From Schmidtea polychroa (Eukaryota): a stretch of DNA of 64,000 nucleotides. The notes below the pieces were generated by a model. The model was given only the letters and a program-made list of their open reading frames with translations. It made no database searches and was not told where the DNA came from. The position numbers were made by a program, and so were the translations under genes. The DNA lies in the NCBI GenBank assembly GCA_044892525.1, contig CM097885.1:15192001-15256000 (forward strand), written 5' to 3'. This document shows, piece by piece, positions 12,050-60,134 of this stretch. Every line of letters starts with the position of its first letter. The stretch's first letter is position 1.

Positions 12050-12162
12050 TTTTAATATTCAATTAAAAATTAATTTTCTTTATATCGTAAAGAATAAATT
12101 GATTTAATTACTCTATAATATAACATATATATATACTTGATTTTTATAAATATTCAGTAGAA

Positions 12163-12675: not shown

Positions 12676-13022
12676 ATTATGAAGGTAACTGTTTTTATTT
12701 TAAATTTACTGATTTTGGTTTAGAAACTATACTAAAAATTTTGATTGATAAAATTGAAGATTTTTATCCTAATTTGTATTGTGCTCCAGAAGTTGTGTTT
12801 TACAAAATTTATGAAATAACTGGAATAAATGTAATAGATTTAATTCATATGGATCATGCTACGATTACATGTTATACCGACGATGTTGAAAATTGTGATT
12901 TTTGTAAAAATAAAATGCAGAATACTTGTGGGGATGATAGTTGTACATGTTTTATAAATCTACAGAAACGAGAAATAATTCATGCATTACTTGTGGAATT
13001 GCGAAAAAATGTATTTTTGTAA
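12672..13022 (+). CDS. Cys-rich hypothetical protein of element A
   Basis: 116-aa ORF with CDFC and CGDDSCTC. It shares KIYEITGINVIDL and CGDDxCxC with the protein at 48616-48974. Start codon uncertain. Confidence 0.55.
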   Translation: MNYEGNCFYFKFTDFGLETILKILIDKIEDFYPNLYCAPEVVFYKIYEITGINVIDLIHMDHATITCYTDDVENCDFCKNKMQNTCGDDSCTCFINLQKREIIHALLVELRKNVFL

Positions 13023-18084: not shown

Positions 18085-18425
18085 GGTCCAGATCATAAGA
18101 TAATGCCATCATTGAACAACCTAATGGTCGCATCTCAGTTGATTGGGTAGAAAGCTGCTTAACATCCGCAATAGAACGACATATTATGTCGCAAGGCATT
18201 TCATATCCATGTTTATATCTAAATCGAGCTGCTTCCATTTGTGCACGACATACTTGAGATCGATAATCAGGGATCATACCAGTCATAACACCTCCAGTAC
18301 TTTCAGTAATATTAAACAATCTTGTAGCTGAACTCTTCTCAATCATTTTATCTGGAACCTGTCTTTGTGTAGCTACTACATCACAATAATTGCATCGAAT
18401 ATCCACGGAAAGCAATCCACCACAT
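18085..18425 (-). pseudogene. PSMA6: Proteasome subunit alpha type-6 fragment (retrocopy-like)
   Basis: GGLLSV...TQRQVPDK...VMTGMIPDYRSQV.RAQMEAARFRYKHGYEMPCD...TQSTEMRPLGC matches PSMA6; the N- and C-terminal parts are missing and there are no introns in the segment. Confidence 0.8.
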
Positions 18426-19499
18426 AAATTTGATATCATATTATTCTTTTCATAATTAATTGCCGCCATCTTTTCTAACTCTACCAAAATTCATAAACCG
18501 AAATTCGATACCATTAACACCATTAACATTATCATATTCATAAATTTCTTCATTACCAACTCTCTTTATTGCAATAGTCACATGTATTCAAATTAATCAT
18601 CATTCCTTCAAAACATCGATAAAATTCCAACTCTTTACAACATTCAACAAAATCGATAAAAAATCTAAAAGATTACAAACAAACTAACTAAATAAAACTT
18701 GAAATACCTCTTGCTCGCGTCTGTGTGTGCACACAGCCAAAAACAAAGAAAAGCGCACACAGACGCGAGATCAGATTAAAATTTCCACATTCTCAATTTT
18801 ACGCGTCTGTGTGCGGACACAACCAAAACAAAGAAAAAGCGCACACAGACGTGAGACAACTAATAATTTACCACATATGTCTCTTTCTTTTCATCATTAT
18901 GGAGAACAGCATTAATTTTAATATATGTTTAACACAAGATTTGACGCTTAACAGTTAGAATTCTTAGACAATTCTAGTTAGTGTTTGGTGATGTGAGTAT
19001 ACTGTTGTGCTGTTCCTGAGATTATTATCATCCCCTGTTGGATACTAAACGTGAGTAATTTTCATTATAATCTTATCATAAACGTTTTCGTGTTTTTATC
19101 GTATTTTATAGAATTATTATAACTTGCATTCAAGTTATATGAAGTAAATGATATGGAAATTGATAAAATAAGATAATGAAAATTTATTTCTTAAAAATTG
19201 AATCTCCATGTTATATTTTTCAGTTTTTTCTGTCATTTTTTATAATATTTTCATAAAAGATTTTTATAAATATTTACAAGATAAATAACATAATTTTCTC
19301 TCCCTCTTTCAGTTTATAAAATGGCCAGTAAAAATCTACTGCTGATCCCATCTCTGCAGACACAGATTCAGAATATGAGGCATATTTATGAATATGAAAC
19401 TATTTCTGATATCCGTACGGCACCCATTCGTGATGAGTGGACTCGGGTTTCCGACATAGAAAGTGTGGTGCGATACTCATACAGGCTATTTGTTAAAAT

Positions 19500-24227: not shown

Positions 24228-27200
24228 TTAGGGTGGGTCGAAAATTTTCTTTTTCTCCAAACATGCCTAAAAAGTTGTGCTTATGCTAGAAAATGAAATA
24301 TCCCTGCAAAAGACTGCTGTTTAAAAGGGTTTACAGGTCCCAACTTTTGTTTGTATGTATTAGTACTATCCCAGTAAAAATGCTCGCACACGTGCCATTG
24401 TAAATTCATCCTGCAAGCAGTCACACGCTTGCAGAAAGACCATTTTTGACATGCTCTATTCACAAGTCCAAGCTAACGCGTGCATGTATAGAGAGGTTAA
24501 TTCACGGAAGCACCTTCACACAAGCACTCACAAAGACAATTTCTTCTGAACAATACTAACACACACACTACAGTCAACACATAATCCACATGGATACTAC
24601 TAGTCAGTCTAAACTCAGATAATTTAATTTGTTTCGATTGGATGTCAAGTGTTTGCTGGACCTAATTAAAAACGTTAACTTGATGATTCACTTTTATTTT
24701 GCCAGAGCTGAGTACAGAAGAGCAGTTATGAAGGGACAGAGAAATAAGCAATTTCGCAAAACAAGAAGTAAATCACGTCATTGTCTGTTTGGTCAAACTT
24801 GTGAACTACCCAGAAACCAATTACCTACTTGTGAAGATGTGTTTCGTGATTACTGTTACAATGAGAAATGTACGCAATTTCATACTGGCTTTAACGAACA
24901 AGCAACTCTTCTCGCAAATAAGGTGAAGGAAATTTATATGAAGGCAAGTATCCCAACTGTTGAGTTCAGTAGTATTGTGGTTCGTGTCAAGCGACTAATA
25001 TCAAAAGTGCGTGAATTAGAGAAGTATCCAGAATGCAAGAGGTCATCTGCCAAATTTCAAGATAAGTTAAGCTCGTTTTCCAAATTGTTTGACATATGTT
25101 GCTGCAAATGTTTTAATGATGGTGCTCGTGGAAGAAGTCAGTGTACATGCCGATTGGCCTTGAAAATTCCTACCTTAGAGTGGGAGTTCTGGATTGACCA
25201 ACAAACTACCAGAAACATGAAAATCGGAAATACGGACAGACAGGAAACCTCAAAATTGAAGAGAAAACAAACGAAAAGCAGCCCTACAGGAAAAGGAAAA
25301 CAAATGAAAAATGAAATAATGGACACTGAAGTTAACGATCTACATCCGACCTCAAGAAGTGACACGGAGAGTGAAGCCGCTAGTGATGAAAGTAAAGATA
25401 AGTTAGACAATTCAACAGAAAGCTCAGAGTCAAGCGTAGAAGAATGTGATGAATTTCAAAATAGAAGACATTATCCTGAATTAAGTAAAGCTGTTGACAG
25501 ATGTGGTGTGAGCAACAGAGACACGTGTTTGCTAGTAAACGCTTTTCTGAAAGATATGGAACTGTTATCCTCTCAAACAATTATCGATCCCGCAAAATTA
25601 CGGCGTCAGAGAAAGTACTGGAGGGAGAGAGAAATTGAACAGCATTCAGCAGAAGCGAAAAACTTGATTTGCCTCGGTTTCGACGGGAAACAAGATTCCA
25701 CCTTACTTCATAGAAGGATCCTAAAAGAGGAGCATTATGTGATTGTCGCCTTTCCAGGGGATACATATATCGATCATGTTGTACCTCAAAGTAGTAAAGC
25801 TGTGGATATTGGCAAAGAAATCATGTCAATCATCGTTAGCATGCAGTCCTCACTGACCCTTCAAGCAATTGTGTGCGATGGAACCAATACAAACACCGGA
25901 AAAAATAATGGAATAATCAGAAGACTCGAAAAAAGCCTAGGGCGACCTTTACAATGGCTGATATGCTTGTTGCATGCAAATGAATTGCCATTCAGGAAGT
26001 ATTTTTCAGTCGTCGATGGTGGAGAAACAAAAGGTCCAAAAACGTCATGTGGTGAAATAGGAAGCGTTCTTGATTTTGATCCAAAAGACAAGCCCGTAGT
26101 AGCCTTTATGTCCCTTCCTGGAAAGGTCGTAGATATTAGTGAAAATGTCAAGAAAGAATTGAACACTGATCAATTGTATTTCCTCAGAGTATGCTTGGCA
26201 GTCCAGAAAGGGTACCACAACAACAAGGATGTCCCTTTTCTACAAATGGCACAACCAGGAAATTTGAATCACAGTCGCTGGCTAACGAAAGCTAATAGAA
26301 TTCTGCGACTATATATGTCCGAAACTGCTCCATCTGAACCTCTCATGCGAATAGTGAAATTTATTGTCAATTTCTATGGACCGTCATGGTTTTATATAAA
26401 GACTCACTCGTCATGCCAAGATGGTGCAAGAAATATTTTTTATATGCTCCAACTTCTGCAGGATTTGGATCCATCAGACCAAGAAATCATCTTTCCTGTC
26501 ATTCAGAACAACAATTACTTCTCACATCCAGAAAATATACTCCTAGCTGCTGTTGGTGATGATGATGAAGAAATCAGAAAGTTTGCAACAGAAAAAATCA
26601 TAACTGCAAGACAAAATTTTCTCCCTTCCGAAGTGATTCGCACTATGGACAAGAATACTGTCTTTCTTCAGTCGTCTGCTACATCATATGTTGACATGAT
26701 TGACTGGACAAAATGTAATTTGACGCCTCCCCCTCTTTTATCTCATATATTGGATCATGAATTGAAGATGAATAAGAAAATTACATTAGAACAATTTCCC
26801 TGTCATTCTCAAGCCGTTGAAAGAGCCATCAAAGATGTTTCTTCTGCCAGTTGCAAAGTGTTTGGTCACAAGTCCAGACATGGTATGGTACTACTGTGTA
26901 AAAAATCAAGGAAGGAATTGCCCAAGGTGCAAAGCAAAGCTGATTTCATGTGACTTCTTTTTATGCCCTCGCTAATACATTTCTAAACTTTTGGCTGGAT
27001 GTTTTTAATAAAAAATAATTTCGAAAGTTGATTTTTGTCTTTGAAAAGGATAATTCAAATTTGACCCTTCCTAATCACTGACGTTGTCAGGATATATTTC
27101 AATGCGGGATGAGGACACAGAATATACTATCTCAGCCCAAGAGAGTAAATAATATACTTATAAGCTTTTAAGAAAGCTACATCTAAATATGGACAAAGGC

Positions 27201-28524: not shown

Positions 28525-30782
28525 CAGTGGTGATATTCGAATTTTTTAACAACCGGTACGCATGGAAAAAAATCTATTGTAGGTTATATTTACTTCATAA
28601 TAGTTATTTATTTACATATTTACATAAGAAATACATATATTATATATAATAGTATAAAAAATAGTATATAAAATTAATTAAATAATTTCCAAATTAAATT
28701 TTGGTTTTGGGACGGCAAATTAGGTGCGGCTGCTTTGACACGTTTGTCACTTGCCATATGATGCCCTTCTCGCAACCATAATTTAACATATGGTGTTGCA
28801 TCAAAATCCTCAATCGATTTTCCCATTAAATTTATTGTCATTAAATGACTTGTTGTTTCAATTAACAATGAATTTCTCTTATCATAAATGATATTGTTCA
28901 TTGTGCTGAGTCCTCTTTCAGCTTCTGCGGAATTAACAGCAATTACATTTAAAATTCTTTTTGCTCTCAAAATAGTATTAATATTTTTAGATTCTCTATC
29001 TCGCACATCAACAAAATCTCGAAAATCATTTACTGGAATGATGTATTTGATTATTTTATTTAACTGCTCTAACCTATTTTCACCTTCAATCCATGGTGCT
29101 TCAAAAATATCACCCGGCCATGTTTCTGGATTTAATAAATTAAAGCAATTTAAGAGATTATTATAGTTTTCATTTTTATCGTCTAATAGCAAACGCGTTT
29201 TCATGTTTTTCTAAACAATCAAAAAATTTATCTCTCGAAACAACAATTGATGTTTTTTTTCTATTAATTTCAAATGGAATATTGGATTTTTTCGTTTTAA
29301 TAATATCATCTGCTTCTTTTTCATATGTTCCTTTATTTAATTTTAAATGTTGGAACTGATTTATCGTTCGCCTTATCAATCTATCAGCTCTAATTAATGA
29401 AATATCTCTTTCTTGTAAAGCTGTAGACAGTACAGAAATTTCTTCTAATATGTCGTTTATTAAACCTAAATCCTTTAAAAAGTTTTCATTTTTGAAATAT
29501 GACATTATTCCAATTTCTTTATTTTGACTAAAGTGAATATATAAGGCCTGATATGATTTCCAAACTGCTTTGGCGGTCCTAGCGCTACAGGCTGCCCATC
29601 GAGGACCAAATATTCTACCTATTTTGTGTACTTCAGTGCCAAGTTCTTTAGAAACATTATTTAATTCTCGTTGATGTTTATTTGAAGTATGATAATACGA
29701 ATAAAGTTTATCGAGAAAATATCTAAAGTTATTTACTTCATTTACTTCTTTGATAACATCATCTAGAGTTAACTGAATACGATGAGCTAAACAGTGACAG
29801 ATGCTAATACCTGGAAAATGTTCTAAAATTCTTGCAGAAACTCCAGCCTTTTTTCCTAACATTACACTAGCACCGTCTGAGCAAAATCCAATAAGATTTT
29901 CATGTAAATATTTTTCATTAAAACCATGTTTTTCAAGAACTGATATTAAGGTTTTAAAAATTATTTCTGATGTTGTTCCTTCTAATTCGACAAGATCAAT
30001 AAAAACTGTTACACTATCATCGGAATCTTGAATTTCAGATTTCAAATAAACTACTAAAACGCTTTTGTGTGAAACAGTTGAGGCTTCATCAATAATAATT
30101 GAAATTTTACAACCTGTATTTATCAGTTTTCCAAAAAAAATTCTTCTTATTTCTGTAGATATAAGCTTTGCGACAAGTGGAACTATAAATCTGGAATGTA
30201 ATGAAAATCCAAAATCTACATTATTTTTTTTCTGTAAATCAATTAATTTTTTAAAATCACTGAATGGGTAATTGTTTTTAATTATGAAATAGATAGTATT
30301 AAAAATGTTTACTGTGCTGTTTAAATACTTTTCATTAGCCACATCGAAAGATTTGGAAATTATATTTGTTTCACCAATTTTTATTATTTCCCCAGATTTT
30401 TTATGTGAAGCTGATTTATTGTGTTCCTTCAATTTTTTTCTCATTGATGATTGTAAATTTTCTTTGTTCGAGCCATGAGCTTTGACAGAACATGATTTCC
30501 ACTCCACAGAAATGTGTAAATGTTTAGCAGTTTCTAAATTTAACGATTCTACTTTCGAACACCACTGACATCCCACATTTTCATCGCTAACAACAATAAG
30601 CCACTCGTATTTAGTTTTAAAATAATTTAATTGTTTATCATTCCAAAAATGTAATAACGCAGCATCACGAGACGTTCCAGCTTTTTCCGATTGGTGTTGA
30701 ACTTCAGAAGTATCATTTTTTTCTTTTACCTGTTTTGTTTGATTAGAATTAGTAATATTCTCAGCTTGCTGTTTAGGGTATT
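28525..30782 (-). mobile_element. hAT transposon (ZNF862/KIAA1586-like transposase), one frameshift near 29190, 5' part cut by element C
   Basis: IIDEAST, CSDGASVMLG, HCLAHRIQL, PRW and NSAEAERG; probable terminus CAGTGGTGATATTCG at 28525. Confidence 0.85.
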
Positions 30783-46925: not shown

Positions 46926-48381
46926 AGTAGTATGATTGGTCCCCGCCAGACCAGGTCCCCTCCAGACCACATATACCCCCTCCCCCCCCCCCCGGGAAAA
47001 AAAAATTTTTTTTTTTTAAATTTTTTGTTTTAATTAATTGGCCTGGAGGGGACACACTTTTTTTCATCCCAAAAATTAATGTTCCCACCAACGGATTTTA
47101 TTGGACGATACCTCATCTTAAAGCTCAGTCCAAGACCTTTCGATTGATCCATAGAAGGTATCATTATCATTAATATTGACAAAGTTATTAACAATTGATG
47201 ACCACCATCTTTTCAACGTTAAATTATTATTATTATTGAAAATATTATTAATTGGCCGGGCGGGGACATACTTTTTCTCATCCCAAAAATTAATGTTCCC
47301 ATTATCCGAATTTATTAATAGATAGCTTATTTTGAAGCGTAGTCTAAGACCTTTCAATTGAGCCATAGAAGGTATCATCATCATTAACATCGGCAAAGTT
47401 ATTAAAGTTTTACCGAGACCATTTTTCAAGGTCATTTATTTTTCAAAATATTATTTTCAAGGTCAAGGTCAAGGTCAAGGTCATTTATTTTTTTTCAAGG
47501 TCATTTATTTTTTCAAGGTCATTTATTTTTTCAAGGTCATTTATTTTTTCAAGGTCATTTATTTTTTCAAGGTCATTTATTTTTTCAAGGTCATATTTTA
47601 AAATTTAAATGTACAGAGTTCCCGACAACGATAATTATTCAACGATAGCTCATTTTAAAGCCCAATGCAAGACCTTTCGATTGATTCATAGAAGGTATCA
47701 TCATCATTATTATTGACAAAGTTATTAACAATTGATGACCACCATCTTTTCAACGTTAAATTATTATTATTATTCAAAATATTATTAATTGGCCGGGCGG
47801 GGACATACTTTTTCTCATCCCAAAAATTAATGTTCCCACCAACGGATTTTATTGGACGATACCTCATTTTAAAGCTCAATGCAAGACCTTTCGAATGAGC
47901 TAATGAAGGTATCATCATCATTATTATTGACAAAGTTATTAACATTTTACCAAAAATCATTTTCAAGGTCATATAATTATTAAGTGGTCTGGCGGGCCCC
48001 TACTCTTTTTCATCCCAAAAATTATTGTTCCCATTATCCGAATTTATTGGACGATACCTCATCTTAAAGCTCAGTCCAAGACCTTTCGAATGAGCCATAG
48101 AAGGTATCATCATCATTAATATTAACAAAGAGAATGACTCACCCAATGACTCACCCAACGATGTCTAATATTTTTAGAACGATGACTCATCAAGGTCAAG
48201 GTCAAATTTTTAATAAAAGGTCAAGGTCATTTATTATTTTCAAGGTCATTTATTATTTTCAAGGTCATTTATTTTTTCAAGGTCATTTATTTTTTCAAGG
48301 TCATTTATTTTTTCAAGGTCATTTAATTTTCAAGGTCATTTATTAAAATAATTATTATTTTCTAAGTTTTTAGTTTCTAAG

Positions 48382-48462
<81 letters not shown>

Positions 48463-48545
48463 CTATCCGACAAAATATTCTGACCCCCTATGGGTATTGC
48501 TAGCAAGGGTACTGGTCACATTCAACATGTCGCAAGGGTACTGTT
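46926..48545 (+). repeat. Left terminal arm of element B (imperfect long TIR with ~190-bp subterminal units and CAAGGTCA arrays)
   Basis: Repeated CATCCCAAAAATTAATGTTCCC...AAGACCTTTCGAATGAGC units; inverted counterparts at about 59560-61252. Confidence 0.85.
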
Positions 48546-48615
48546 TACAAAATTACTGGTAAAAATATTCAAGACAAAACTTTCTAAATTCTAAATATTA
48601 TTCTTTAAATATACA

Positions 48616-48974
48616 CTAAAATTTATTAACACATTCACATTCATCATCTCCACAGTTCATAACATTTTCAACAACATGATCTATACAATCCCTATATACA
48701 CACGGTTCAGTATCCGTAAATTCCTCCATAGGTTCATCAATTTCTTGAATGCTTTCCTCATCATCTTGAGTGTTTTCTTCATCTGTTTCATCAAATTCCG
48801 AATCTTCACTCTCTGCTACCCAGTCTATATTTAATGCGTTTGTAACAGATAATATATCCGCCATTTTCACACCAGATATTTCTGCTAATTTTTCCAATAA
48901 AAAGTTTATTATAAATTCTAAATATTAAATAATTCGATAATTAACTAATCATATTAACCTTTTTCTGTAGTCAT
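48616..48974 (-). CDS. Spliced acidic, Cys-tailed hypothetical protein
   Basis: MTTEK|EFIINFLLEKLAEISGVK after removing the 41-nt GT-AG intron at 48958-48918; acidic linker; CVYRDCIDH...CGDDECEC. Confidence 0.75.
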
Positions 48975-49070
48975 TATTAGTATTTTAAAACTATAGTATA
49001 TATTTGTTTATAGAAAATATAGAATATAAGCGAAAACAAATATGACTAAATACATTTATTAAATACAACA

Positions 49071-49490
49071 TTAAAATAACTGTGAAAGTCTAGCAGACAT
49101 AATTTTCCAAATTGGAGAATACACATCATTATTATCAACTTTATATCCTTGGATTGTAATTGTTATATACCAATTTTCGTTTTCTTTGAAACTGATTTCA
49201 TCAAAGGAATCATAAAATTTTGCATATCGGTTGTTGAAAAATGCATTTTGATTGCATGATAGATTCGTATTCAACCTTTTGAAAACATCATCTATGGTTT
49301 TAATATCTAACATTGAAAGCGTGCCGGTTAAGAATTGAAATTGGGTAGGAATTAGCTTGATCGGTGACACCAATTTCATATTGATTTCTTCTTTTAAAAA
49401 ATACATTTTGTAGTTGTGGAACATTTGAACAGGTTGTACAAGTTCTGGAACTACTTTTGGTTTTTCAGTGCTTGAAATTTTCTTGGTCAT
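49071..49490 (-). CDS. Conserved hypothetical Polinton protein (139 aa)
   Basis: Intact ORF with a homologue in element A (13222-13825). Confidence 0.7.
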   Translation of the reverse strand: MTKKISSTEKPKVVPELVQPVQMFHNYKMYFLKEEINMKLVSPIKLIPTQFQFLTGTLSMLDIKTIDDVFKRLNTNLSCNQNAFFNNRYAKFYDSFDEISFKENENWYITITIQGYKVDNNDVYSPIWKIMSARLSQLF

Positions 49491-49598
49491 TGTGAATTAT
49501 GATTAAAATGAAATGGTATAGGGTTTTTATACCTATGACTATTGTTTATCATCCAATCAGATTGCAGTATGTTTTTGTTTTAATTGAATGATAAATAA

Positions 49599-50063
49599 TT
49601 AATTAAGTGATAATAAAAAATCTAAAAATTCTTTTCCTTCAATTATTGATTTAATTTCAGATATGATATTATCAACTATACTTTTGTATTCAATATTTTT
49701 TATTCCAAGAATTACTATCTTACCGCTAGCGAATATATTTACACACATAGGGTTATATTTTATATATCTCAAAGCTGGAAATAATTCTGGTTCATAAAAG
49801 CATGGTATTAATTTAGCTAATTTATTTAAATTACAAGAAAAACCTATATCGGAAGTTACGGTTATCGATTGTATTTCTAAATCATAAACATTATATTCAC
49901 TAGCTTTGCTTATTTCCTTACACCCCATAATTCTACATTTACCAGTTTTGAAATATATTATTGGATATTTATTACTTCTATTGATAAGTTGTTGTGGTTT
50001 CCCTATTGGAAATACCATTTTTGATACATCAGTTTTTGCCCTGTAATTTATATTTGAAAGCAT
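49599..50063 (-). CDS. TATA-binding protein (TBP)-like protein carried by element B
   Basis: FYEPELFPALRY...VNIFASGKIVILGIK and IIYFKTGKCRIMGCK; intact 154 aa; head-to-head with the ATPase as in element A. Confidence 0.85.
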   Translation of the reverse strand: MLSNINYRAKTDVSKMVFPIGKPQQLINRSNKYPIIYFKTGKCRIMGCKEISKASEYNVYDLEIQSITVTSDIGFSCNLNKLAKLIPCFYEPELFPALRYIKYNPMCVNIFASGKIVILGIKNIEYKSIVDNIISEIKSIIEGKEFLDFLLSLN

Positions 50064-50167
50064 TTTAATGAAATAATTTTAAAAACTTTGATATATATAG
50101 GTATTTAAAAACAGAGTTCATTTAAATTATCAATATAAACAATAATTATATAGTTTAAATTTAAAAA

Positions 50168-50806
50168 ATGGAATTACGAAATGATGCAGTATACCAAATC
50201 GTTGGTCCAAGTGGTAGCGGGAAAACTTTATTTGTTTGTAAATTACTAAAATCAAATTTGTTTAAAACAAAATTCAACAATATTTATTGGCATAGGGGCG
50301 CCGACGAAGAACACGGATTGACGCAATCAAGTTTCTGTCAGTTGAAAAACATGAAAATAGTAAAGGGCTTTGATAAAAACTGGTCAAGTCGTTTGAAGAA
50401 AGATGATGTCATCATTATCGATGATTTGTATCAAGAAGCCAATAAAGAAAAGGACTTTAATAATTTATTCACAAAAATCAGCAGACATGTTGGTGTAACA
50501 GTTATTTTCATAACACAAAATCTATTTCATCAAGGTGGTGCACATCGAACACGTAATTTAAATGTACAATATTTAGTTATTTTCAAGAATCCTAGAGATG
50601 CAACTGTCATTGATTTTCTTGGACGACAAGCATACCCTAATAACCGTAATTTTCTTATCAGTGCATTTCAAGATGCCACGAAAATACCGCATGGGTATAT
50701 ATTTCTCGATTTCACACAACAATGCCCTGATGATATACGCGTAAAAACAGATATTTTCAACCCAAAAGGTGCCATGGTATATAAACAAAGTTCAAAACAA
50801 AGTTGA
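50168..50806 (+). CDS. A32/FtsK-HerA family DNA packaging ATPase
   Basis: GPSGSGKT, IIIDD, SRH...ITQNLF, RTRNLN.QY...FKNPRD and HGYIFLD. Confidence 0.93.
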   Translation: MELRNDAVYQIVGPSGSGKTLFVCKLLKSNLFKTKFNNIYWHRGADEEHGLTQSSFCQLKNMKIVKGFDKNWSSRLKKDDVIIIDDLYQEANKEKDFNNLFTKISRHVGVTVIFITQNLFHQGGAHRTRNLNVQYLVIFKNPRDATVIDFLGRQAYPNNRNFLISAFQDATKIPHGYIFLDFTQQCPDDIRVKTDIFNPKGAMVYKQSSKQS

Positions 50807-50819
50807 AAACATATAAATC

Positions 50820-51308
50820 ATGTTTTCAAAAACAAGGATATCGGGTAAAAAACAACCAAAAGTTCCACCAACAACTAGTTATACTCCATCTAAAGATCTT
50901 ATTACAGAAAATTTTCCTGCAATGAATCTTATTTCGAAAAATCCTAAACCAAAAAGTAAAACCACTAAGAAAGTAAAAGTTGTTAAAAATCATCGGAGTT
51001 TCCCGTTTTTCAATACATTGTTAAAGGCACCAAGTATGAAAAGAAACAGTATTTTGCAATCTTTTCCAAATTATGTTGTCGATGATTTACTCGATATTAT
51101 ACTTAAAGTAGTCAAAGGCAAGATTAAAATCAGTAAATCTAAAAAGCAATTATTGAGTAAACATAGGAAACCTTTGCTATCATTAGTAAATAATAAAAAT
51201 CGTCAACAAATGAGAAAAATTATATATAAACAACAAGGGGGATTTATCGGTGCATTGATACCTTTAGCAATATCATTATTAGGTGGAATAATAGGAAGTC
51301 GATCATAA
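50820..51308 (+). CDS. Basic virion core protein, pX-like C-terminus
   Basis: Lys-rich; ends QQGGFIGALIPLAISLLGG, resembling adenovirus pX after a GG protease site. Confidence 0.7.
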   Translation: MFSKTRISGKKQPKVPPTTSYTPSKDLITENFPAMNLISKNPKPKSKTTKKVKVVKNHRSFPFFNTLLKAPSMKRNSILQSFPNYVVDDLLDIILKVVKGKIKISKSKKQLLSKHRKPLLSLVNNKNRQQMRKIIYKQQGGFIGALIPLAISLLGGIIGSRS

Positions 51309-51369
51309 ACAATGGGTGCTAATCCTTCATTACCAGACATTAAATTTAATATTAAATCTTCTTGTTGTA

Positions 51370-52425
51370 ATGGAGAAGATTTGGACGAACCCGGAAGACG
51401 AAGCCGGTTTTGGTGGAGTGGCAAAATTAAGGAAAAGAGTTCCGAATTCGAAAAAGGAAACTCAGAAGTGGTTATCAGACCAGCTTGCGTACAGTTTGAA
51501 CAAACCAATGCAGAAACGATTCCCAACAAGAGCATATAAAACATATGGAATAAATGATTTATGGCAAATGGATTTGATGGAGATGATACCCTATTCGAAA
51601 ATTAACAATGGGTATAAATATATTTTAACATGTATTGATGTATTCAGTCGGTTTGCCCGAGCAATACCCGTCAAGGCAAAATCTGCAGATGAAATGTCCA
51701 AAGCTGTTAATCATTTATTTAAAGATGGACATCCTAAAAACTTGCAAACTGATTTAGGTATTAATATTATTATTTTTATTATTATTATTATTATTTTAGG
51801 TAAAGAATTCTAAAACAGTAAAGTCAAGCAAATCCTCATTAAATTGAAAATAAACCATTACTCAGTACATTCTCAATACAAAGCTGCTCATGTTGAAAGA
51901 TTTAACCGAACTTTGAGAGATAGATTAAAGAAATTATTCGTGCATCAAGGTAATAAAAAATGGGTATTGGTTTTACCAAAAATAATAACCAGTTATAATC
52001 ACTCATCACATCAAGGACTGAATGGATTAAGGCCGATTGATATCACGTCAAAAACAATCTATTCTAAAAAACCTGAAAAAATTACAAAACCGAAATATAA
52101 AGTAGGTGACCATGTTAGAATTAGTAAAATTAGTGCATCACCATTTATTAAAAATTTCGATACAAATTGGAGTGATGAAGTCTTTGTAATTTCAAAAATA
52201 AATACTAAACAGAATCCTGTAATGTATGTCATCAAAGACGATGATAACAATATTGTACAAGGAAAATTTTATGAACAAGAATTACAAGTTATTCCTCCCC
52301 CAAAAGTATTTAGAATTCAGAAGATATTGAAAACTAAAAATAAAGGCAAGGATAAACAATACTATGTCAAATGGCATGGTTATCAAAACCCATCATGGAT
52401 ATCAGAAAAGGATCTAGTAAAGTGA
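51370..52425 (+). pseudogene. Retroviral-type (rve) integrase with C-terminal chromodomain; 42-nt intron-like insert and one premature stop
   Basis: WQMDL, IDVFSR, LQTDLG|KEF, VERFNRTL (DDE); chromodomain IQKIL...YYVKWHGY..PSWI; GT-AG at 51758-51799; TAA at 51811-51813. Confidence 0.9.
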
Positions 52426-53438
52426 ATTTTTATACTATTTTACCAAGCAATAGTTGCCCGCTTATTCATCCAGATAATCAAGCCAGTAAATTCATGGTCA
52501 ATCTCCAGAATCCGATTTCTTTAAATGGTGACTGGGAAGTTGCACTGCAAGATTTTACATTCGTGTACAATACATTCCCATTTTATAGTCAATGTAAGAT
52601 TGATTTCAAAAGGAATGCTATGAAAACATGTAGTGGTATCTTTATTATCAGTAATTATGATAAAACATATCATATTCCGAATCAAATATTAGATCAGCAT
52701 TGCACTATGTTTTACAAGGATGGATTAAATATCAGTTGTGATTTTAAACCATTTACAATAACATTCGAATATATTGAAGATGCCAGACGAATGGGCTGCA
52801 ATAAGTTGAAAAATGAAGTTATGGAAACAGAATATTTATTACGCTTTGATCTATTTGAAGCAAACAGTGTAATGAGAGAAGAAATCAAAATTTCAGTGTC
52901 GTATAATAATGAAGTTGAAGAATCATTCACCTTCGCTGACGAATTATATATTGATAAACTTGATGTGTTACTTAAATATTTAAAGTATAATTGTTCACAC
53001 ATATTTAAAAGTTTGGATATTGTGAAAGATTTGTTATTTACCTTCAGTTTGAATGATGACATTTGCGAAGTTACATTTGATAAAAATTTGACAAATACAC
53101 TTGGATTAGAGAAGCAGCAATATCGGGAAAAATCGGCTGGTATACGTAAACCAAGAATACTTGAACATCATCAACAAATGTTCATATATACTAATATTAT
53201 TGAGCCTATAATAGTTGGTGATTCCAGTGTTCCTCTATTGAAATCGGTGTGGATTGGAAAATATGAACATGATGAAGTTGTCAATATAAATATAGATAAT
53301 CCCATGTATTTACCAATTTCAAGCTCATGTATAAACAATATAGAAATAAATATTCGTGACGATAGTGGAAAACTTATAAACTTCCCAAAAGACTCAAAAA
53401 CTCATTTGACACTACATTTTCGTAAAGTAGATGGCTAA
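52371..53438 (+). CDS. Minor capsid protein (penton, single jelly-roll)
   Basis: FYTILPSNS...PDN.ASKF.V.L..PI.L.G.WEVAL at the N-terminus and IYTNIIEP.IVGD...PLL...Y.P...I.I.IRDD.G...LHFR at the C-terminus, typical of Maverick penton. The true start is probably near 52422. Confidence 0.85.
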   Translation: MAWLSKPIMDIRKGSSKVNFYTILPSNSCPLIHPDNQASKFMVNLQNPISLNGDWEVALQDFTFVYNTFPFYSQCKIDFKRNAMKTCSGIFIISNYDKTYHIPNQILDQHCTMFYKDGLNISCDFKPFTITFEYIEDARRMGCNKLKNEVMETEYLLRFDLFEANSVMREEIKISVSYNNEVEESFTFADELYIDKLDVLLKYLKYNCSHIFKSLDIVKDLLFTFSLNDDICEVTFDKNLTNTLGLEKQQYREKSAGIRKPRILEHHQQMFIYTNIIEPIIVGDSSVPLLKSVWIGKYEHDEVVNINIDNPMYLPISSSCINNIEINIRDDSGKLINFPKDSKTHLTLHFRKVDG

Positions 53439-53793
53439 TTCCGATATTATTAGTATGTATAGTGATAGCCAATCTGGCGGTGAATTACCATATTTTATTG
53501 GTAAACAGTACGGATCAGGTTGGTTAAAAACAATAGGGAGATTTGCACTTCCCATTCTTAAACGTATTGGTAGTTTTGGCATGAAAACTGCAAAAGATGT
53601 GATTATGAATGAACAGAAAATATTACCATCCCTAAAAACAAATGCTTTAGCGGAGTTAGGGAAGGTTCTACCTGGAGTTGCTGGTATGTTTCAAAAAGAT
53701 ACACCTCCAGTCCCAGCTCCAAAACGTAAAGGGCATGGAATATCGCGTATAAACAAACGAATGAAAGGACATGGAACTATATTTGCAAAATGA
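53431..53793 (+). CDS. Small virion protein with QxGG/QxGxG sites and amphipathic helix (pVI/'cupiennin'-like)
   Basis: QSGG...FIGKQYGSGWLKTIGRFALPILKRIG; located between penton and MCP. Confidence 0.7.
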   Translation: MANSDIISMYSDSQSGGELPYFIGKQYGSGWLKTIGRFALPILKRIGSFGMKTAKDVIMNEQKILPSLKTNALAELGKVLPGVAGMFQKDTPPVPAPKRKGHGISRINKRMKGHGTIFAK

Positions 53794-55013
53794 TTTGTGG
53801 TAAATCCGAATTATGTATATTTGATAGACCATCGCCCCAGGCAGTAATAGAATTTGGTGCCTTTGAGGAAGTTTTTCCTATGAATTCAATTACTGATAGT
53901 AGAAATGATATCGAGTTTTATATTAATGGTTCGCAAACTGAATATTTAGATTTGAACGATACTTTATTGACTGTTCAGATCAAGGTTGTAGATAAAGATA
54001 GAAAGGTTTTGGATGCCAATGCGGATGTATTACCAAACAATTTCATGTTTCATACTCTGTTTAAAGATGCAGTGTTGGGATTTAATAATATCAAGATTGA
54101 GGGTGGAAATAATACATTCATTCACAAGGCTTTGATAGAAACTATTTTAAATTACAATTCAGATACTAAAAATACCTGTCTTACACCTATGGGTTATGCA
54201 GCAGCAGATGATGAAAGAAAAAAGTGGGTTAAAGGCTCAAAAGTATTCACTATGTGCTCATCATTACAACTTGATTTTATGGATCAACCGAAATATTTAC
54301 TACCGGGAGTTAATATACATATTAGACTGAAAAGATCTGATTCTGCATTGTCTCTTACTAGTGCAACTGGTGCACCAATATGTCAATTAGTTGATGCAAA
54401 ATTATTGGTGAGAAGAGTTCGAGTAGACCCGTCAGTATTAGCTGGTCATCAATTGGGGCTTAATTCAAAACATGCAATTTATCCTTTAAAAACAAAGGAA
54501 ATTGTACAATTTGCTATTGCTAAAGGTGCTTCATCATTCTATAAAGAACAAATATTTGGTGACAGAAGAATGCCTAATTTTATTCTGGTAACATTTCAAA
54601 GTGAAACGCAATATAATGGATCGTATACTGCTTCCAGCTCAATTTTCAAAAATTTTGGTGTTACTTCATTGACTTTATCGAAAAATACTGATTATAGAGA
54701 AACATATACTCAAGATTTCGAGAATGATAATTACTGTGCGACATATATGCAGAGTATTGTTAGAAATCTGGGTTATTTAGATAAAAACTTGAATTGCGGA
54801 ATAACTCTTGAAGAATTTAAAAGCAAATACCCATTTTTCACATTTGTTCTAGCTCCCGATTTTGATTTAAATCAGAGTCAATTACCACAAAACGGGAATT
54901 TACGACTGGATATAAAGTTTGCAAAGGCCATTACTGAACCAGTACATGTTATAATATATGGAGTATTTGAAAATGAAGTTCAAATTACTGCAAATAGAAC
55001 CGTGCTAGTATAA
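53790..55013 (+). CDS. Major capsid protein (double jelly-roll, hexon-like)
   Basis: KSELCIF N-terminal motif, IEF.I.G...EYLDL, QPKYLLPGV.I.IRL.R and G.LRLDIKF; intact 407 aa. Confidence 0.88.
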   Translation: MICGKSELCIFDRPSPQAVIEFGAFEEVFPMNSITDSRNDIEFYINGSQTEYLDLNDTLLTVQIKVVDKDRKVLDANADVLPNNFMFHTLFKDAVLGFNNIKIEGGNNTFIHKALIETILNYNSDTKNTCLTPMGYAAADDERKKWVKGSKVFTMCSSLQLDFMDQPKYLLPGVNIHIRLKRSDSALSLTSATGAPICQLVDAKLLVRRVRVDPSVLAGHQLGLNSKHAIYPLKTKEIVQFAIAKGASSFYKEQIFGDRRMPNFILVTFQSETQYNGSYTASSSIFKNFGVTSLTLSKNTDYRETYTQDFENDNYCATYMQSIVRNLGYLDKNLNCGITLEEFKSKYPFFTFVLAPDFDLNQSQLPQNGNLRLDIKFAKAITEPVHVIIYGVFENEVQITANRTVLV

Positions 55014-55040
55014 ATGTATACAGAAATATAGAAAGTTGTC

Positions 55041-55424
55041 ATGGAGTAAGTTTTTCAATACTGTTTAATTTATTAAAGTAGTTCTGTTCAGGTCAATAGA
55101 ATTGGAAAACAGATATTGGGAAATGAATTTGTAGGAGTTTTTCCTCTCGATAAAATCCCATATTTGAGCAATAATCAAGCCATAATCGTCAATACTCAAT
55201 CGTCTCATCTTGGTGGAGAACATTGGATTGCTATATATGTGAAACCTAGTAATATATTCGTGTTCGATCCTATGGGTTTCTATTACCCTGCTTTGTTGGT
55301 ATCAAAACTACAAACAATGGGGAAACCTATTGTATATAATAAAACAATGTTTCAAAATCCCTTGACACAAACATGCGGTCAACATTGTTTAGCTTGGTTG
55401 TTGTATAAAAAATTTGATGATTAA
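55041..55424 (+). CDS. Adenain/Ulp1-like maturation cysteine protease (probable 33-nt intron at 55046-55078)
   Basis: FVGVFPLD, IVNT, GEHW, FDPMG and Q...TCGQHC catalytic residues; splicing gives the start MDSSVQVNRIG. Confidence 0.88.
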
Positions 55425-55449
55425 TAAATGTATTTTGTATCCTTTGTTG

Positions 55450-55494
<45 letters not shown>

Positions 55495-55561
55495 TTTTAT
55501 TAATATTATTATTATTTTATTATTATTATTATTATTAATATTATTAATATTATTATTATTA

Positions 55562-55609
<48 letters not shown>

Positions 55610-58600
55610 GATTTTTAAGGGGGTGTTTAAAATGGTAGAAATATTTGGTGAGGAATCGGTTATGGTGGAAATGTTTGAAATCTCTATTTAAATCGACAAT
55701 GTTCTTATTGGTAAAATTTTAAAGGGAAATAGTCAGTATTTAGCTATGAATTAATAATAGTTCCTGTGAAATTATATCGTTTTAGAGGTTTATTAGGTTG
55801 TGATGAATGTCATTGCACAGTAATTTAGATTTATGTTTTAGAACCAGTTTTTTATTAATTATCCACTGTTTTATTAAGTCTTTTAGGGTTAATGATCAAT
55901 TTACTTGGTTTTCACAATGAAATATTTGAAATCTTTAGAATTAATTGGGATTGATATCAAAGGTTATTGCTTTAAATTATTTTACTTAAGAAGTTATTTT
56001 ATTCATTGTGGGGACATCAGTGACAAAACTTGAGAAATATTGACTTAAAAGTTGGAAATCGACAACGGCTAAAGAAAATTGATCTTTATTGAAGGAATTT
56101 TATGATTTTAATTAGAAATTAAATCGGTTGAATATCAGTTAATCTATTGAAGGAATATTGTTATCGGATGGATAAGTGATATTTTGCCAAATTACCTTTG
56201 CTAAATATTATTTTAAATCACTAAAAATGAGAAAATTAAGCACTATTCATAAATTTATCGCACAAAATATCCATGTTTTGGTTACTCAAACATCTTAAAT
56301 TTCTCGCAAAGATATATTACGTCTAATGATCATCTAATTAAATTAGAAAAGAATTGTTACTTTATATTTTTAACTAATAAGCACCTTATTTGGTTAAATG
56401 ATAACCATATTTCTATTATGACTCCTTTAAATATTTTTGCCTCAAACAAATTTACTCCAAATGATAAAGAATTTAAAATTATCAATGAATAAAGACCATG
56501 TTTTTCTCATATTATTAACTATTGTAACGAACATTAGATGAATAAATTAATTTTTGCTTTAAATGACTACAAAGTTAACCAATAAATTAGTCGCTCGACA
56601 TAAGTGTAAAGTTACATTTAAAATATTCACAAATTTCTGATTATCTTACCTAAGAATTTCTAAATGATTAATATTGCGACATGTTGAGTGTGACCAGTAC
56701 CCTTGCTACCATTACCCAAAGGGGGACAGAATATCTTGCCGGATAAACTCGGAGTATATGGTCTTTATTGATATATCAAAATACTGTTATTTATAAATTA
56801 ACTAAAAATACTCAAAAATACTATATTATTTTACTGAATGATACCTTAAATGTTTTTAATATACATATTTCTAAAATAAATCAACAGTTCAAACCAACAA
56901 CATGTATGGATGACCACCCATTGTTAATTTATTTCCAGTGTCACGTCCCTCAAAAATACCGTGAGTGTTTTAACAAAACTGAGCTAAAAGAAACTTTCCA
57001 GATAACAACTCACCTGAATGTTTTGAACAAAAATGAGCAAAATTGAGAACAAACGATTAGATGGCGATTAACTTCTGGCCACATCCCTAACAACATGAAA
57101 ATTAAGATTTTAATTATTGAATTCGTTGTTTTCTGCCTGGAAATACTAACAGAATATTTTTTAATTCAAAGAATCTTCATTATAAATTTTTGAATTTAAA
57201 AAATTAAATGAAGGATATATTAAATTTACAATACATAATATTATATAAAATTATACTGTATTTATTAATAAATTTAGAATACATAAAATTATAATATTAT
57301 AATATTTTATAAAGTTATACTATATAATAATGTTTAAATATGCTTAAATAACTAAATTGTTTAAATATTTTTAAATAACTAAATTTAAATTATTTAAATA
57401 TAATTCTGATATAACGTTATTTCTTTCGTTTTAGTATCCATAAAGTAAGTAAATAAAGAATTTACTACAATATTTTAATTATTTTACTTAGTAATGAAGA
57501 AAATGAATTATATAATTATGAAGAAGATGAACAAAATGGTGAAACACTAAATGACTTATGTTCTGGATTTAGAGATTTCTTATTAAAACATGAATTATAG
57601 AAGAAAATGAACCAGACAAAATGGTGAAACATTGCTATGTTCGGGATTTCTTAAATGAATTAGCTGATTGTAGGTGTCCTTCAACATGAATTATCAGACT
57701 TAAATTATGTAAACTTTCAACGAATGTCAAGAAAAATGGGAAAACCGATGTTTTAGCAATTAGATATTGTAAAGTACTACCTGAAGAATATTATTATTAA
57801 TGTAAGACATGAATTAATTCTTTAAAATAAATATATTATATTTAGGTATCTGTGTTTTATGGTGGGAAATGTCATTGAAAAAGTATACCACAAATAACAG
57901 TTGCCTAATAGTCAGGTAGAATTTAATTTCTGACGATAAAATGATAAATAACATCTGTAAGTTAATGGCTTTTAAATTTTAGCAATGATAGTTGACACCG
58001 CATCAGAAACTAAGAAATACGTCCAATTTGCAAGATGTATTCCAAATGGCCTGATGGAGATGATAATTTTGAGATAGATTACCAGCAGAAGAGCGAGAAA
58101 AATTTGTAAATTAAATATAATAGGGTTGGGTGGGTCCTCTTTATCCCTTAATTAATATATATTTACAAGCTGATCGTCGTGGTAGGCGGTTGTAATCCAA
58201 CTAGTGGGAGGCCTCTGTAAATATATATTTGTGTTAGTGAAAACATTAATTAATTTGGTTATATTGCCAATGACGCATGTATTTTGAAATTATACGTTTC
58301 GAATGTGCTGGTAGTTGACTACCCATGCTAGGCGTAATGTTCCGTACGGAAAGCTATAATGCCCAGGTTCTTTTGACCCCACTTGGGGGAGGCACAGACG
58401 ACCCTTGTGGACGCGAACAAATATCCACCGTGTCTTTCAGGCACAGATATTTGGTCACTGCTCATTAGACCTGGCAATACTAAATGCATAAACTTTGCCT
58501 TGTCCTCTCTTGTCTTGATTTTTATCGTTTAAATAGTATGTGTGATAGGTTTTATTTACTAACCATAATTAATATACCCTTGCGATATGTTGAGTGTGAG

Positions 58601-58838
58601 TAGTACCTTTGTGAGCAATACCCATAGGGGGACAGAATATTTTGTCGGATAGACTATGAGTATATACACCCATGTTAAACAAGGTATGTGTATATAGAAT
58701 GTGTGTGTAAAATTATCGCTCCTTATTGACAACTTCCTGTAAAGGCAAACACAGAATACTGCAAACATAATAATACTCTACCCCATAACTTAGTATGTAA
58801 AAATTATTTAAGGTTTTTTCACTAATAATAATAATAAT

Positions 58839-58914
<76 letters not shown>

Positions 58915-58916
<2 letters not shown>

Positions 58917-59420
58917 GTTTAATGGGTTGTATATGTGTGTAAAAAATATTTGAGGTTTTCACGAATATTGATAATAATAATGGTTTATGAGTGTTTTTAT
59001 GTTTTTGACTAATATTTGCAATAATAATAATGGTTAATGGGTTGTGTGTGTGTGTGTGTAGAAAATATTTTAGGTTTTCACTAATATTGATAATAATAAT
59101 TGTTAATGGGTTGTGTGAGTGTAAATAATATTTTAGGTTTTTGACTAATATTTGCAATAATAATAATAATAATAATAAGTTTAATGAGTTGTATGTGTGT
59201 GTGTAAAAATATTTTAGGTTTTTAATATTGATAATAATAATAATAATGGTTTATGGGTTGTGTGAGTAAACCATATTTTAGATTTTTCACTAATAATGAT
59301 AATAATAATGGTTAATGAGTTGTGCATGTGTGTGTGTAGAAAATATTTTAGGTTTTTAATATTGATAATAATAATAATGGTTGAGGGGTTGTGTGTGTAA
59401 ACCATATTTTAGATTTTTCA
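58915..59420. repeat. About 60-bp minisatellite with (TG)n and (TAA)n inside the right arm of element B
   Basis: Repeated TTAATGGGTTGTGTGTG...AAATATTTTAGGTTTT...AATAATAAT; flanked by long (TAA)n tracts. Confidence 0.85.
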
Positions 59421-59425
59421 TTAAC

Positions 59426-59490
<65 letters not shown>

Positions 59491-60134
59491 TTAAAACTTT
59501 GAAAATAACATCTTTCGCGCGGATGTTAATATCATTCCCAATAATAATGATGATAATAATATTTATATATCAGTAGATAGATCTCGCACTGGGCCTTAAA
59601 ATGAGCTATAGATCAATAAAATCTGTTGGTGGGAACATTAAGTTTTGAGCAAACGAAAACCAGGAGCCCGCCAGACCACTTAATAATATTTTTGAAAATA
59701 ATAATAATTTATGAGTCATCGTATGAGTCATCGAATGAGTCATCGTTCTAAAAATACATGATAATAATAATAATAATAATAATAATATTCTTGGGAGTTG
59801 TAATAATAATTCTTTGAAAATATCTTAGTCATTATTAATAATACTAATAATACCCTAGCGAGTTGTTGATTGTGAGCAGTACCCTGGTGATCAGTACCCT
59901 TGTGAGCAGTTCCCATAGGGGGACAGAATATTTTGTCGGATAGACTCGGTGTATATATGATAATAATAATAATAATAATAATAATAAAACTTAGAAAATA
60001 ATAATATGTAATCAACGATTTAAACAAAATTATATTATTACGTATTCTATAATTAAAACAGAAGAATTATATAATCAATGATTTAAACAAATTATATAAT
60101 CATCGATAATTAAAACAAAATTATTAATTCTAAA

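Follow-up and report, generated by a model that had tools for sequence, protein, structure and literature searches.

Virus-encoded TATA-binding protein (TBP) relatives fall into a few described systems. The late-gene TBP mimic of herpesviruses (KSHV ORF24, EBV BcRF1 and the UL87 family) reads a non-canonical variant of the TATA box on late promoters and uses the RNA polymerase II (Pol II) of the host. In poxviruses, VITF-3 and the large subunit of VETF have a divergent TBP-like fold and recognize promoters in the cytoplasm for the multisubunit polymerase of the virus. The Polintons, or Mavericks, and the adintoviruses have, to our knowledge, been assumed to depend wholly on host transcription. 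Here, we examine 2 Polinton-type elements in a 64,000-nucleotide stretch of the Schmidtea polychroa genome (GCA_044892525.1, contig CM097885.1, positions 15,192,001 to 15,256,000), hereafter the window, each of which contains a gene for a minimal TBP, here called TBPL (TBPL1 in element 1 and TBPL2 in element 2). The TBPs of giant viruses are a further system for comparison, and according to Ravarani et al. (2020; PMC7221094) they mostly lack the glutamates that contact TFIIB and pair with a viral TFIIB and a viral polymerase.

Structure and family of the minimal TBP

The window is located on a 272-Mb contig of the 781-Mb assembly and consists of A+T-rich eukaryotic DNA with a G+C content of 20% to 38% in 2-kb bins. 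An earlier note, made from the sequence alone, had pointed to 2 intact open reading frames (ORFs) with signatures of the TBP fold at 12163-12675 and 49599-50063, each head-to-head with a packaging ATPase gene across about 105 to 115 bp of TATA-rich DNA. Both frames were found to be uninterrupted, with spacers of 113 and 104 bp that contain about 88% A+T, and their products are 55% identical across 148 amino acids. The Pfam family TBP (PF00352) was matched with 59.4 bits (E 3.1e-16) by TBPL2 and with 62.1 bits (E 4.4e-17) by TBPL1, at a cut-off of 22.9 bits, and in both proteins the match was confined to the C-terminal half, residues 60 to 135 approximately. A phmmer search against the PDB sequences (E ≤1) retrieved 35 distinct sequences, every one of them a TBP, with the Methanococcus jannaschii protein 2z8u as the best match (E 5.5e-17); residues 61 to 140 of TBPL could be aligned to either of the TBP repeats.

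The AlphaFold2 model of TBPL2, built on an alignment of 39 sequences, had a mean pLDDT of 93.7 and a pTM of 0.82. All of the 44 matches to PDB structures that Foldseek reported at E ≤0.001 were TBPs (probability 1.0, TM 0.58 to 0.71), and in the VIA structure comparison 38 TBP entries obtained Z-scores of 10.3 to 12.7, with model residues 1 to 139 or more superposed, while the next entry scored only 6.3. The best example was again 2z8u, with a Z-score of 12.7 and a root mean square deviation of 2.5 Å over 141 residues (model residues 1 to 141 against chain residues 6 to 177); the structure-based sequence identity to solved TBPs was 22% to 32%. Furthermore, an hhalign comparison of the TBPL profile with 30 two-repeat TBPs drawn from a representative library gave a probability of 99.87% (E 1.1e-31, 145 columns) and placed residues 1 to 138 of TBPL on both lobes of the TBP saddle. 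Thus, the TBP-fold identity proposed in the earlier note held in each of the sequence, profile, and structure comparisons.

The 2 lobes differ in completeness, as had been noted before for the corresponding repeats. The C lobe, from about residue 58 to residue 153 of TBPL2, has the full strand-helix-strands-helix layout in the model and carries the YEPELFP stirrup and the intercalating residues F95 and F111, all invariant in the 39 aligned family members. Besides strand S1 (the NINY strand), the N lobe, residues 1 to 57, retains 3 more strands and the strand pair with F-x-x-G-K-C-R-I-M-G-C-K. Gaps in the hhalign alignment coincide with helix H1, the first Phe-Pro-Gly, and most of helix H2 of this lobe. 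The modeled strands span residues 2 to 10, 25 to 28, 35 to 38, and 42 to 45, and in place of H2 there is a helix of 4 residues (51 to 54), so that strands and this helix alone stand for the S1-H1-S2-S3-S4-S5-H2 layout of a complete lobe. The H2 with its basic cluster is absent from both model and alignment. Three of the 4 intercalating phenylalanines (F38, F95, and F111) are retained in every aligned sequence; for the first one, in lobe 1, the alignment shows a gap. In total, 19 columns were invariant across the 39 sequences, including E91, P92, E93, F95, F111, F38, R44, and M46, and all aligned members begin directly at strand S1, with no N-terminal tail.

For the DNA-facing surface, the canonical residues and phenylalanine positions are those of yeast TBP, and the TBPL equivalents were read from the hhalign alignment. 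In lobe 1, N4 and F38 stand at a canonical Asn and Phe, and N6, R44, and M46 at positions that are Val, Val, and Thr in canonical TBPs; all 39 TBPL sequences share R44 and M46. In lobe 2, F95, F111, and V117 agree with the canonical Phe, Phe, and Val, and S66, T68, and L119 occupy the places of Asn, Val, and Thr.

The glutamates E91 and E93, which align to the YEPE of two-repeat TBPs, were conserved in 39 of 39 sequences. Two glutamates of the TBP C lobe (C.L3.2 and C.L3.4) interact with an Arg and a Thr that are conserved in TFIIB/TFB, and the basic cluster on N-lobe H2 of eukaryotic TBP is a common docking site for TFIIA, TAF1, Mot1, NC2, and Brf (Ravarani et al. 2020, PMC7221094), which agrees with the functions that the earlier note had ascribed to the stirrup and to H2 of the first repeat. 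The invariant glutamates and the missing H2 lend some indirect support to its suggestion that TBPL would bind TFIIB and escape the regulators of host TBP. Profile and model comparisons together give good support for TBPL as a TBP-fold protein borne by Polinton-type elements.

To place TBPL among related proteins, we searched several collections. A word-indexed protein search identified 98 proteins at E ≤0.001, with 34% to 94% identity and the same reduced architecture, most of them 144 to 170 amino acids long with about 90% query coverage and 34% to 59% identity. They are metagenome proteins from ENA, Logan, JGI, and MGnify only, and 13 of them bear the automatic JGI name "TATA-box binding protein". 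An exhaustive search of representatives yielded 1316 proteins at E ≤0.001, 122 at 1e-10, and 4 at 1e-30. In IMG/VR, we found a single weak TBPL-like locus (33% identity across residues 45 to 142) and no relative of the element ATPase.

The earlier note had also suggested linkage to Polinton genes as a check, and such linkage recurs among the relatives. Relatives of TBPL are encoded at 62 metagenome loci, of which the ATPase gene was present in 14 (33% to 75% identical), the putative capsid gene orf407 in 5, and the integrase gene in several, and orf139, a gene for a probable single-stranded DNA-binding protein (SSB), adjoined TBPL in 17, in 3 arrangements. Locus L037 contained a complete gene for a protein-primed family B DNA polymerase (pPolB; PF03175, E 8.8e-28). 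TBPL was co-directional with and upstream of the ATPase gene at 11 loci, divergent from it at 2 loci as in both copies of the window, and located after orf407 at 3 loci. The head-to-head order of TBPL and ATPase stressed in the earlier note is therefore not conserved. Judged by sequence and gene content, both TBPL ORFs are genuine genes, and the elements that carry them are of the Polinton/Maverick type.

To study selection, 45 complete TBPL genes were compared at the codon level, 33 pairs of which had dS values of 0.05 to 1.2. The dN/dS ratio (NG86) was 0.05 to 0.45, far below 1, in 32 of these, and 0.80 in the remaining, poorly alignable pair. The comparison of TBPL1 with TBPL2 gave a dN of 0.39 and a saturated dS of 1.67. 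These values indicate an old family under purifying selection. A first pass of the host genome yielded 4141 candidate TBPL copies, 150 of which were scored and were all full-length, free of stop codons, and at least 98% identical. The best 30 copies, fetched as the top-scoring ones and hence a biased sample, contained only 4 distinct coding sequences with no synonymous differences. The near-identical genomic copies must therefore be very young, and they say nothing on selection.

A tree of 73 rows, none of which was left out, was inferred with the "quick" method of IQ-TREE and SH-aLRT support only. The 39 TBPL rows clustered together with P0150 and P0159 on one side of a branch with a support of 100 and a length of 1.04, and the other side held 4 host rows with 28 two-repeat TBPs. 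P0150 and P0159 had been considered as intermediates with a full N lobe and were rejected as such; they are short-form TBPL members with insertions. The host genome contains at least 6 loci of the TBP family, namely the canonical TBP (L094), 2 paralogs (L095 and L096), and 3 intronless ORFs (L097, L099, and L100), the latter being divergent two-lobe TBP-like ORFs within the range of 166 to 215 amino acids. The best BLASTP match of TBPL to the 6 host ORFs scored 34.7 bits, at about 25% to 32% identity over at least 60 amino acids, and TBPL does not nest within the host TBP or TRF proteins.

Promoter boxes and a candidate early-to-late switch

The ATPase gene and most genes of the virion module are preceded by the heptamer TATAAAC at about 33 to 57 nt before the ATG; the canonical TATA box, in contrast, is of the TATAAAAG type. 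In element 2, TATAAAC was found at 50134-50140 on the ATPase strand of the spacer, 34 nt before the ATPase ATG, at 50780-50786 within the ATPase coding end and 40 nt before the ATG of orf162, at 53330 and 53375 upstream of orf120, and at 53748-53754, 42 nt before the ATG of orf407. The complement of this element 2 spacer box, GTTTATA, was retained in the spacer of all 30 genomic copies examined. The ATPase strand of the element 1 spacer has the variant TATAAAG. Fifteen of 17 ATPase genes contained TATAAAC at 34 to 48 nt before the ATG, and the other 2 have one-letter variants. The 15 genes include loci with an ATPase identity of only 33% to 37%, between which the surrounding spacer is unalignable.

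For the statistics, we considered non-redundant upstream regions over the interval from -75 to -15 and assigned the ATPase, orf162, orf120, and orf407 genes to a late class. TATAAAC was the top 7-mer in an unbiased count of the late class, with a presence in 18 of 25 intervals against 0.39 expected. It was absent from all 40 TBPL intervals (late versus TBPL, Fisher P 1e-10) and from all 15 orf139 intervals, and was observed once among 53 TBPL genes within 150 nt upstream. The canonical TATAWAWR, on the other hand, was present in 20 of 40 TBPL intervals versus 5 of 25 late intervals (P 0.02). Across the whole window TATAAAC is not enriched (33 found versus 30 expected), and the signal is therefore positional. 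Read from these upstream regions, the element has 2 promoter classes.

On balance, and with moderate confidence, we favor the reading that TBPL is an element-encoded basal factor that would drive the late promoters via host TFIIB without the surface used by host regulators. In such a scheme, host TBP and Pol II would express TBPL first, together with the replication genes, and TBPL would then bind the TATAAAC boxes. The N lobe of TBP sits over the 3' half of the TATA box, and it is there that TATAAAC departs from the consensus and that the altered N lobe of TBPL would be placed. TBPL would nucleate the pre-initiation complex through host TFIIB, on which it would have to rely since the element lacks a TFIIB gene, as judged from the absence of Pfam matches to the TFIIB or Zn_Ribbon_TF families in a scan of its ORFs. 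TBPL would not respond to TFIIA, TAF1, Mot1, NC2, and Brf because these need the missing N-lobe helix. The predicted result is an early-to-late switch, comparable in its logic to that of the herpesvirus late-gene TBP mimic. A bolder version, in which TBPL and TATAAAC form a self-contained promoter-specificity pair and a one-and-a-half-lobe TBP of about 150 amino acids would steer the TFIIB and the Pol II of the host toward the late genes while structurally invisible to TFIID, TFIIA, Mot1, and NC2, is put forward tentatively, with its chances slightly short of even.

Several observations weigh against a dedicated late factor. TATAAAC is only one position off the canonical box; it may thus be recognized by host TBP, and the target of TBPL may be another one. 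Several of the boxes of orf162, orf120, and orf407 overlap the last part of the coding sequence of the gene before them, where conservation may be partly at the protein level; the frames of the orf120 boxes differ, and the ATPase box alone is cleanly intergenic. The promoter statistics disregard the shared ancestry of related loci, and the TBPL tree was made by a quick method without bootstraps. Three of the 4 central polar minor-groove contacts are replaced (Ser66, Leu119, and Met46), which could weaken or change DNA binding. Finally, TBPL is located with replication genes (the SSB-like orf139 and pPolB), and a role in replication would fit this location as well.

Such a replicative or architectural role is the main rival, and one that we hold to be unlikely. 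The TBPL saddle would here bend A+T-rich DNA at the element ends or the origin and thereby aid protein-primed replication or integration. The adjacency to orf139 in its 3 arrangements, the position of TBPL1, which in element 1 shares its side of the divergent spacer with pPolB, and the replacement of 3 of the 4 central polar DNA contacts of transcriptional TBPs are all consistent with it. Pure DNA bending, however, would not require E91, E93, and the rest of YEPELFP, which are invariant in 39 of 39 sequences, and TATAAAC is found at promoter distance from the ATGs and not within the terminal repeats. The invariant stirrup would also suit a decoy that titrates host TFIIB or blocks host TATA boxes and so damps the transcription of the host or of competing elements, in particular as the TFIIB-contact residues are kept and the TFIIA/TAF1 surface, which stabilizes productive complexes, is lost. 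We consider a decoy more improbable still, since it would not predict an element-wide, class-specific box that is missing from the TBPL gene, and since a general inhibitor expressed from thousands of integrated copies would be costly to the host, although neither argument is decisive.

The remaining alternative, that TBPL is a functionless, recently captured or decaying copy of a host TBP or TRF gene, is very improbable. Donors are available in the at least 6 host TBP-family loci, but the low identity to all of these, the separate and strongly supported TBPL clade, the low dN/dS values, and the recurrence of the reduced architecture in the 98 database proteins speak against it, and to the extent that sequences can tell we exclude it.

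A minimal TBP carried by the element, along with the box that matches it, would offer a concrete and testable switch for Polintons; the full texts searched contained no account of the timing of replication genes versus capsid genes in these elements. TBPL is also a natural minimal TBP that appears to have kept the saddle for DNA as well as the contact to TFIIB and dropped the surface for eukaryotic regulators; as such it bears on the evolution of TBP asymmetry and could serve as an orthogonal part for transcription. With thousands of near-identical copies, TBPL may influence host transcription if de-repressed. Polintons reportedly become de-repressed in planarians after smedwi-2 RNAi (PMC8532177), a finding that would apply here only if the species were the same. 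Should the promoter-specificity pair prove true, Polinton-type elements would rank as the smallest of the known DNA viruses that possess a basal transcription factor of their own and a built-in temporal cascade, and they would provide a natural experiment in which the TBP N-lobe helices are dispensable for core function.

Carrier elements and host surroundings

The features of the 2 elements are listed in Table 1. Element 2 spans approximately 47033-59711 and is flanked by degraded inverted repeats, between which orf93, orf139, and TBPL are on the minus strand and the ATPase gene, orf162, the integrase gene, orf355, orf120, and orf407 follow in this order on the plus strand. Another genomic copy of about 12.2 kb in total has arms of 1.8 kb that are 90% alike (L102 6940-8720 versus L103 9664-7879). 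A 105-amino-acid ORF without a known family occurs twice in the left repeat of element 2 (47118-47435 and 47655-47972, minus strand), and likewise in this other copy (L102 7040-7835). No pPolB gene was found between the inverted repeats of element 2; of the 2 elements, only element 1 carries one, located downstream of TBPL1, where 15016-15294 matches PF03175 (E 1.6e-7, 31.1 bits, cut-off 25.8). Element 1 is the older and decayed one.

Table 1. Coordinates of the TBPL genes and other features of the 2 elements in the window
Feature	Position	Strand	Description
TBPL2	49599-50063	-	Uninterrupted ORF, 154 aa; strand-only N lobe and complete C lobe in the model
TBPL1	12163-12675	+	Uninterrupted ORF, 170 aa
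Divergent spacer, element 2	50064-50167		104 bp, 88.5% A+T, between TBPL2 and ATPase
Divergent spacer, element 1	12050-12162		113 bp, 87.6% A+T, between TBPL1 and ATPase
ATPase, element 2	50168-50806	+	Pox_A32 / FtsK-HerA type, 212 aa; Pfam Pox_A32 E 2e-7
ATPase, element 1	11606-12049	-	Pox_A32 type, shortened, 147 aa versus 212
orf139	49071-49490	-	TBPL neighbor; probably OB-fold SSB of the T7 gp2.5 / Enc34 type
orf93	48616-48897	-	Acidic, Cys-rich C-terminus; no Pfam family
orf93 counterpart, element 1	12672-13022	+	
orf162	50820-51308	+	Hydrophobic C-terminus
Integrase	51370-52425	+	rve with C-terminal chromodomain; Pfam rve, rve_3, Chromo
orf355	52371-53438	+	Probable virion protein; no Pfam family
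orf120	53431-53793	+	
orf407	53790-55013	+	Probable double-jelly-roll major capsid protein
Left inverted-repeat region, element 2	47033-48571		Repeats to 56638-59711
Right inverted-repeat region, element 2	56638-59711		Pairs with 47033-48571
pPolB, element 1	14358-15971	+	Protein-primed family B DNA polymerase, several frame pieces

The Pox_A32 matches in the elements had E-values of 2e-7 and 4.9e-8, and homologs 70% to 75% identical to the element 2 ATPase adjoin TBPL in metagenome contigs. The integrase frame of element 2 is broken between 51813 and 51844 into 2 ORFs, and is intact in another genomic copy (351 amino acids, L103 1796-2851). In front of the integrase gene we noted a small ORF that begins with Met-Gly-x-Asn (51312-51539, plus strand) and follows a [C/T]ATAAACA motif; such ORFs, with the motif directly or within about 40 nt ahead, were also observed at the divergent loci L036, L039, and L041, and could represent a leader exon or a separate small, perhaps myristoylated, protein.

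Homologs of orf355 were identified at the metagenome loci L037, L041, L066, and L075, and the nearest Atlas clusters contain unnamed proteins, mostly of Preplasmiviricota (score 0.97, taken as a lead only). The orf407 product had an Atlas score of 0.98, likewise only a lead, to a cluster in which 65% of the members contain the domain PF21738 (DJR-like_dom), and has homologs with 41% to 57% identity at L037, L041, L055, and L066. The Pfam scan of the element ORFs gave no match to a capsid or penton family, for which the Atlas scores of 0.97 to 0.98 are leads only, and none to an adenain-type cysteine protease in a search that did not cover small or spliced genes.

The orf139 product was modeled with a pLDDT of 89.7. 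In the VIA comparison its matches included ASFV CP312R, the Enc34 SSB, and T7 gp2.5 (Z 7.0 to 7.5) as well as baculovirus LEF-3, the viral single-stranded DNA-binding matches spanning Z-scores of 5.6 to 7.5 altogether, and Foldseek matched the Enc34 SSB with a probability of 0.95 (E 0.03). The protein is probably the SSB of the element for protein-primed replication, as judged from the model. It had also been considered as a partner of TBPL, a candidate that was dropped on account of its resemblance to viral OB-fold SSBs.

Other observations concern related loci. Contigs were obtained from 4 sequencing runs of guessed or unknown kind, one of which covers the whole of element 2; a second run, labeled as another organism, yielded contigs with a likeness of 95% or more mainly over 50192-55279 and almost none over TBPL. 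At L037, an ORF for a ubiquitin-conjugating enzyme (UQ_con, E 1.7e-12) is located at 222-719 on the minus strand beside the SSB-like gene. The related pPolB ORFs at L037 (10209-12698, minus strand) and L041 (9122-12391, minus strand) have an N-terminal, borderline match to Endonuclease VII (E 7e-5, 22.9 to 23.1 bits), which is below the cut-off of 23.6. Adjoining another copy of element 2, we identified an ORF of the LTR-retrotransposon gag type (zf-CCHC and Retrotrans_gag; L102 1502-3610, minus strand).

Between the 2 elements of the window, an exon of a host proteasome subunit is located at 17948-18469 (minus strand; PF00227, E 2.2e-21). A 756-amino-acid ORF with no Pfam family (24683-26953, plus strand) and a 422-amino-acid ORF with a weak, below cut-off match to DUF659 (29176-30444, minus strand; E 3.5e-4) may each belong to other mobile elements. 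It was also noted that the genome contains tandem arrays of at least 13 intronless ORFs of 301 to 310 amino acids that combine a zinc ribbon with a cyclin repeat, both of TFIIB (L112 4182-5087, minus strand; C1 23.85-24.19 Mb and C3 38.2-39.1 Mb of the same genome). No Polinton genes were found within the 10 kb examined at such an array. Such a multiplication of a basal factor had not been expected, and it occurs in a genome full of elements that bear a TBP gene. The canonical host TFIIB gene is split into small exons, and the top genome match to PF00382 is Brf1-like.

Comparison with known TBPs and viral TBP-like factors

Cellular TBPs, that is archaeal TBP and eukaryotic TBP and TRF, share with TBPL the saddle across both lobes, and the C lobe of TBPL is complete and has kept Glu-Pro-Glu. 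Whereas the cellular core comprises about 180 amino acids, TBPL has 145 to 170, with an N lobe that lacks H1, most of H2, and one phenylalanine. TBPL further differs in the DNA-facing residues Ser66, Leu119, Arg44, and Met46, and in being encoded by a mobile element.

The giant viruses (Nucleocytoviricota) also encode TBP homologs, and these were the best fold matches to TBPL in BFVD, including proteins of Heterosigma akashiwo virus, Terrestrivirus, and Aureococcus virus (E 2e-8 to 8e-7). However, the giant-virus TBPs are at least 186 amino acids long, have 2 full lobes, and are at most 22% identical to TBPL. Unlike them, TBPL keeps the TFIIB-contact glutamates, and the ORFs of its element contain no TFIIB family according to Pfam. 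The poxvirus factors have no sequence similarity to TBPL, and the vaccinia VETF 82 kDa subunit and the structure 8p0j matched it only weakly (E 1.5e-2, Z 5.0).

Also comparable is a "TBP" label in the legend of Figure 5 of Starrett et al. (2021; PMC8502044), which deals with MELD and adintovirus-like viruses; it was the only mention of a Polinton or adintovirus TBP that our full-text searches retrieved. The label denotes a homolog in a mid-size Polinton-related virus genome, and that study analyzes neither the structure, the promoters, nor the distribution of the protein. The novelty that the earlier note had claimed for a Polinton TBP is tempered by this label.

With the herpesvirus mimic, TBPL shares only the proposed logic and no family relationship. 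The herpesvirus models matched TBPL weakly (BcRF1 E 3.3e-3, TM 0.36; UL87-type E 3.1e-2; TM range 0.36 to 0.38), and TBPL is closer in fold to cellular TBP (TM 0.6 to 0.7) than to the UL87/ORF24/BcRF1 family. The BcRF1 and UL87-type proteins have at least 577 amino acids and extra domains, whereas TBPL is a recognizable member of PF00352. Viral TBP homologs are already known, and to these TBPL adds a real, conserved, and element-borne minimal TBP.

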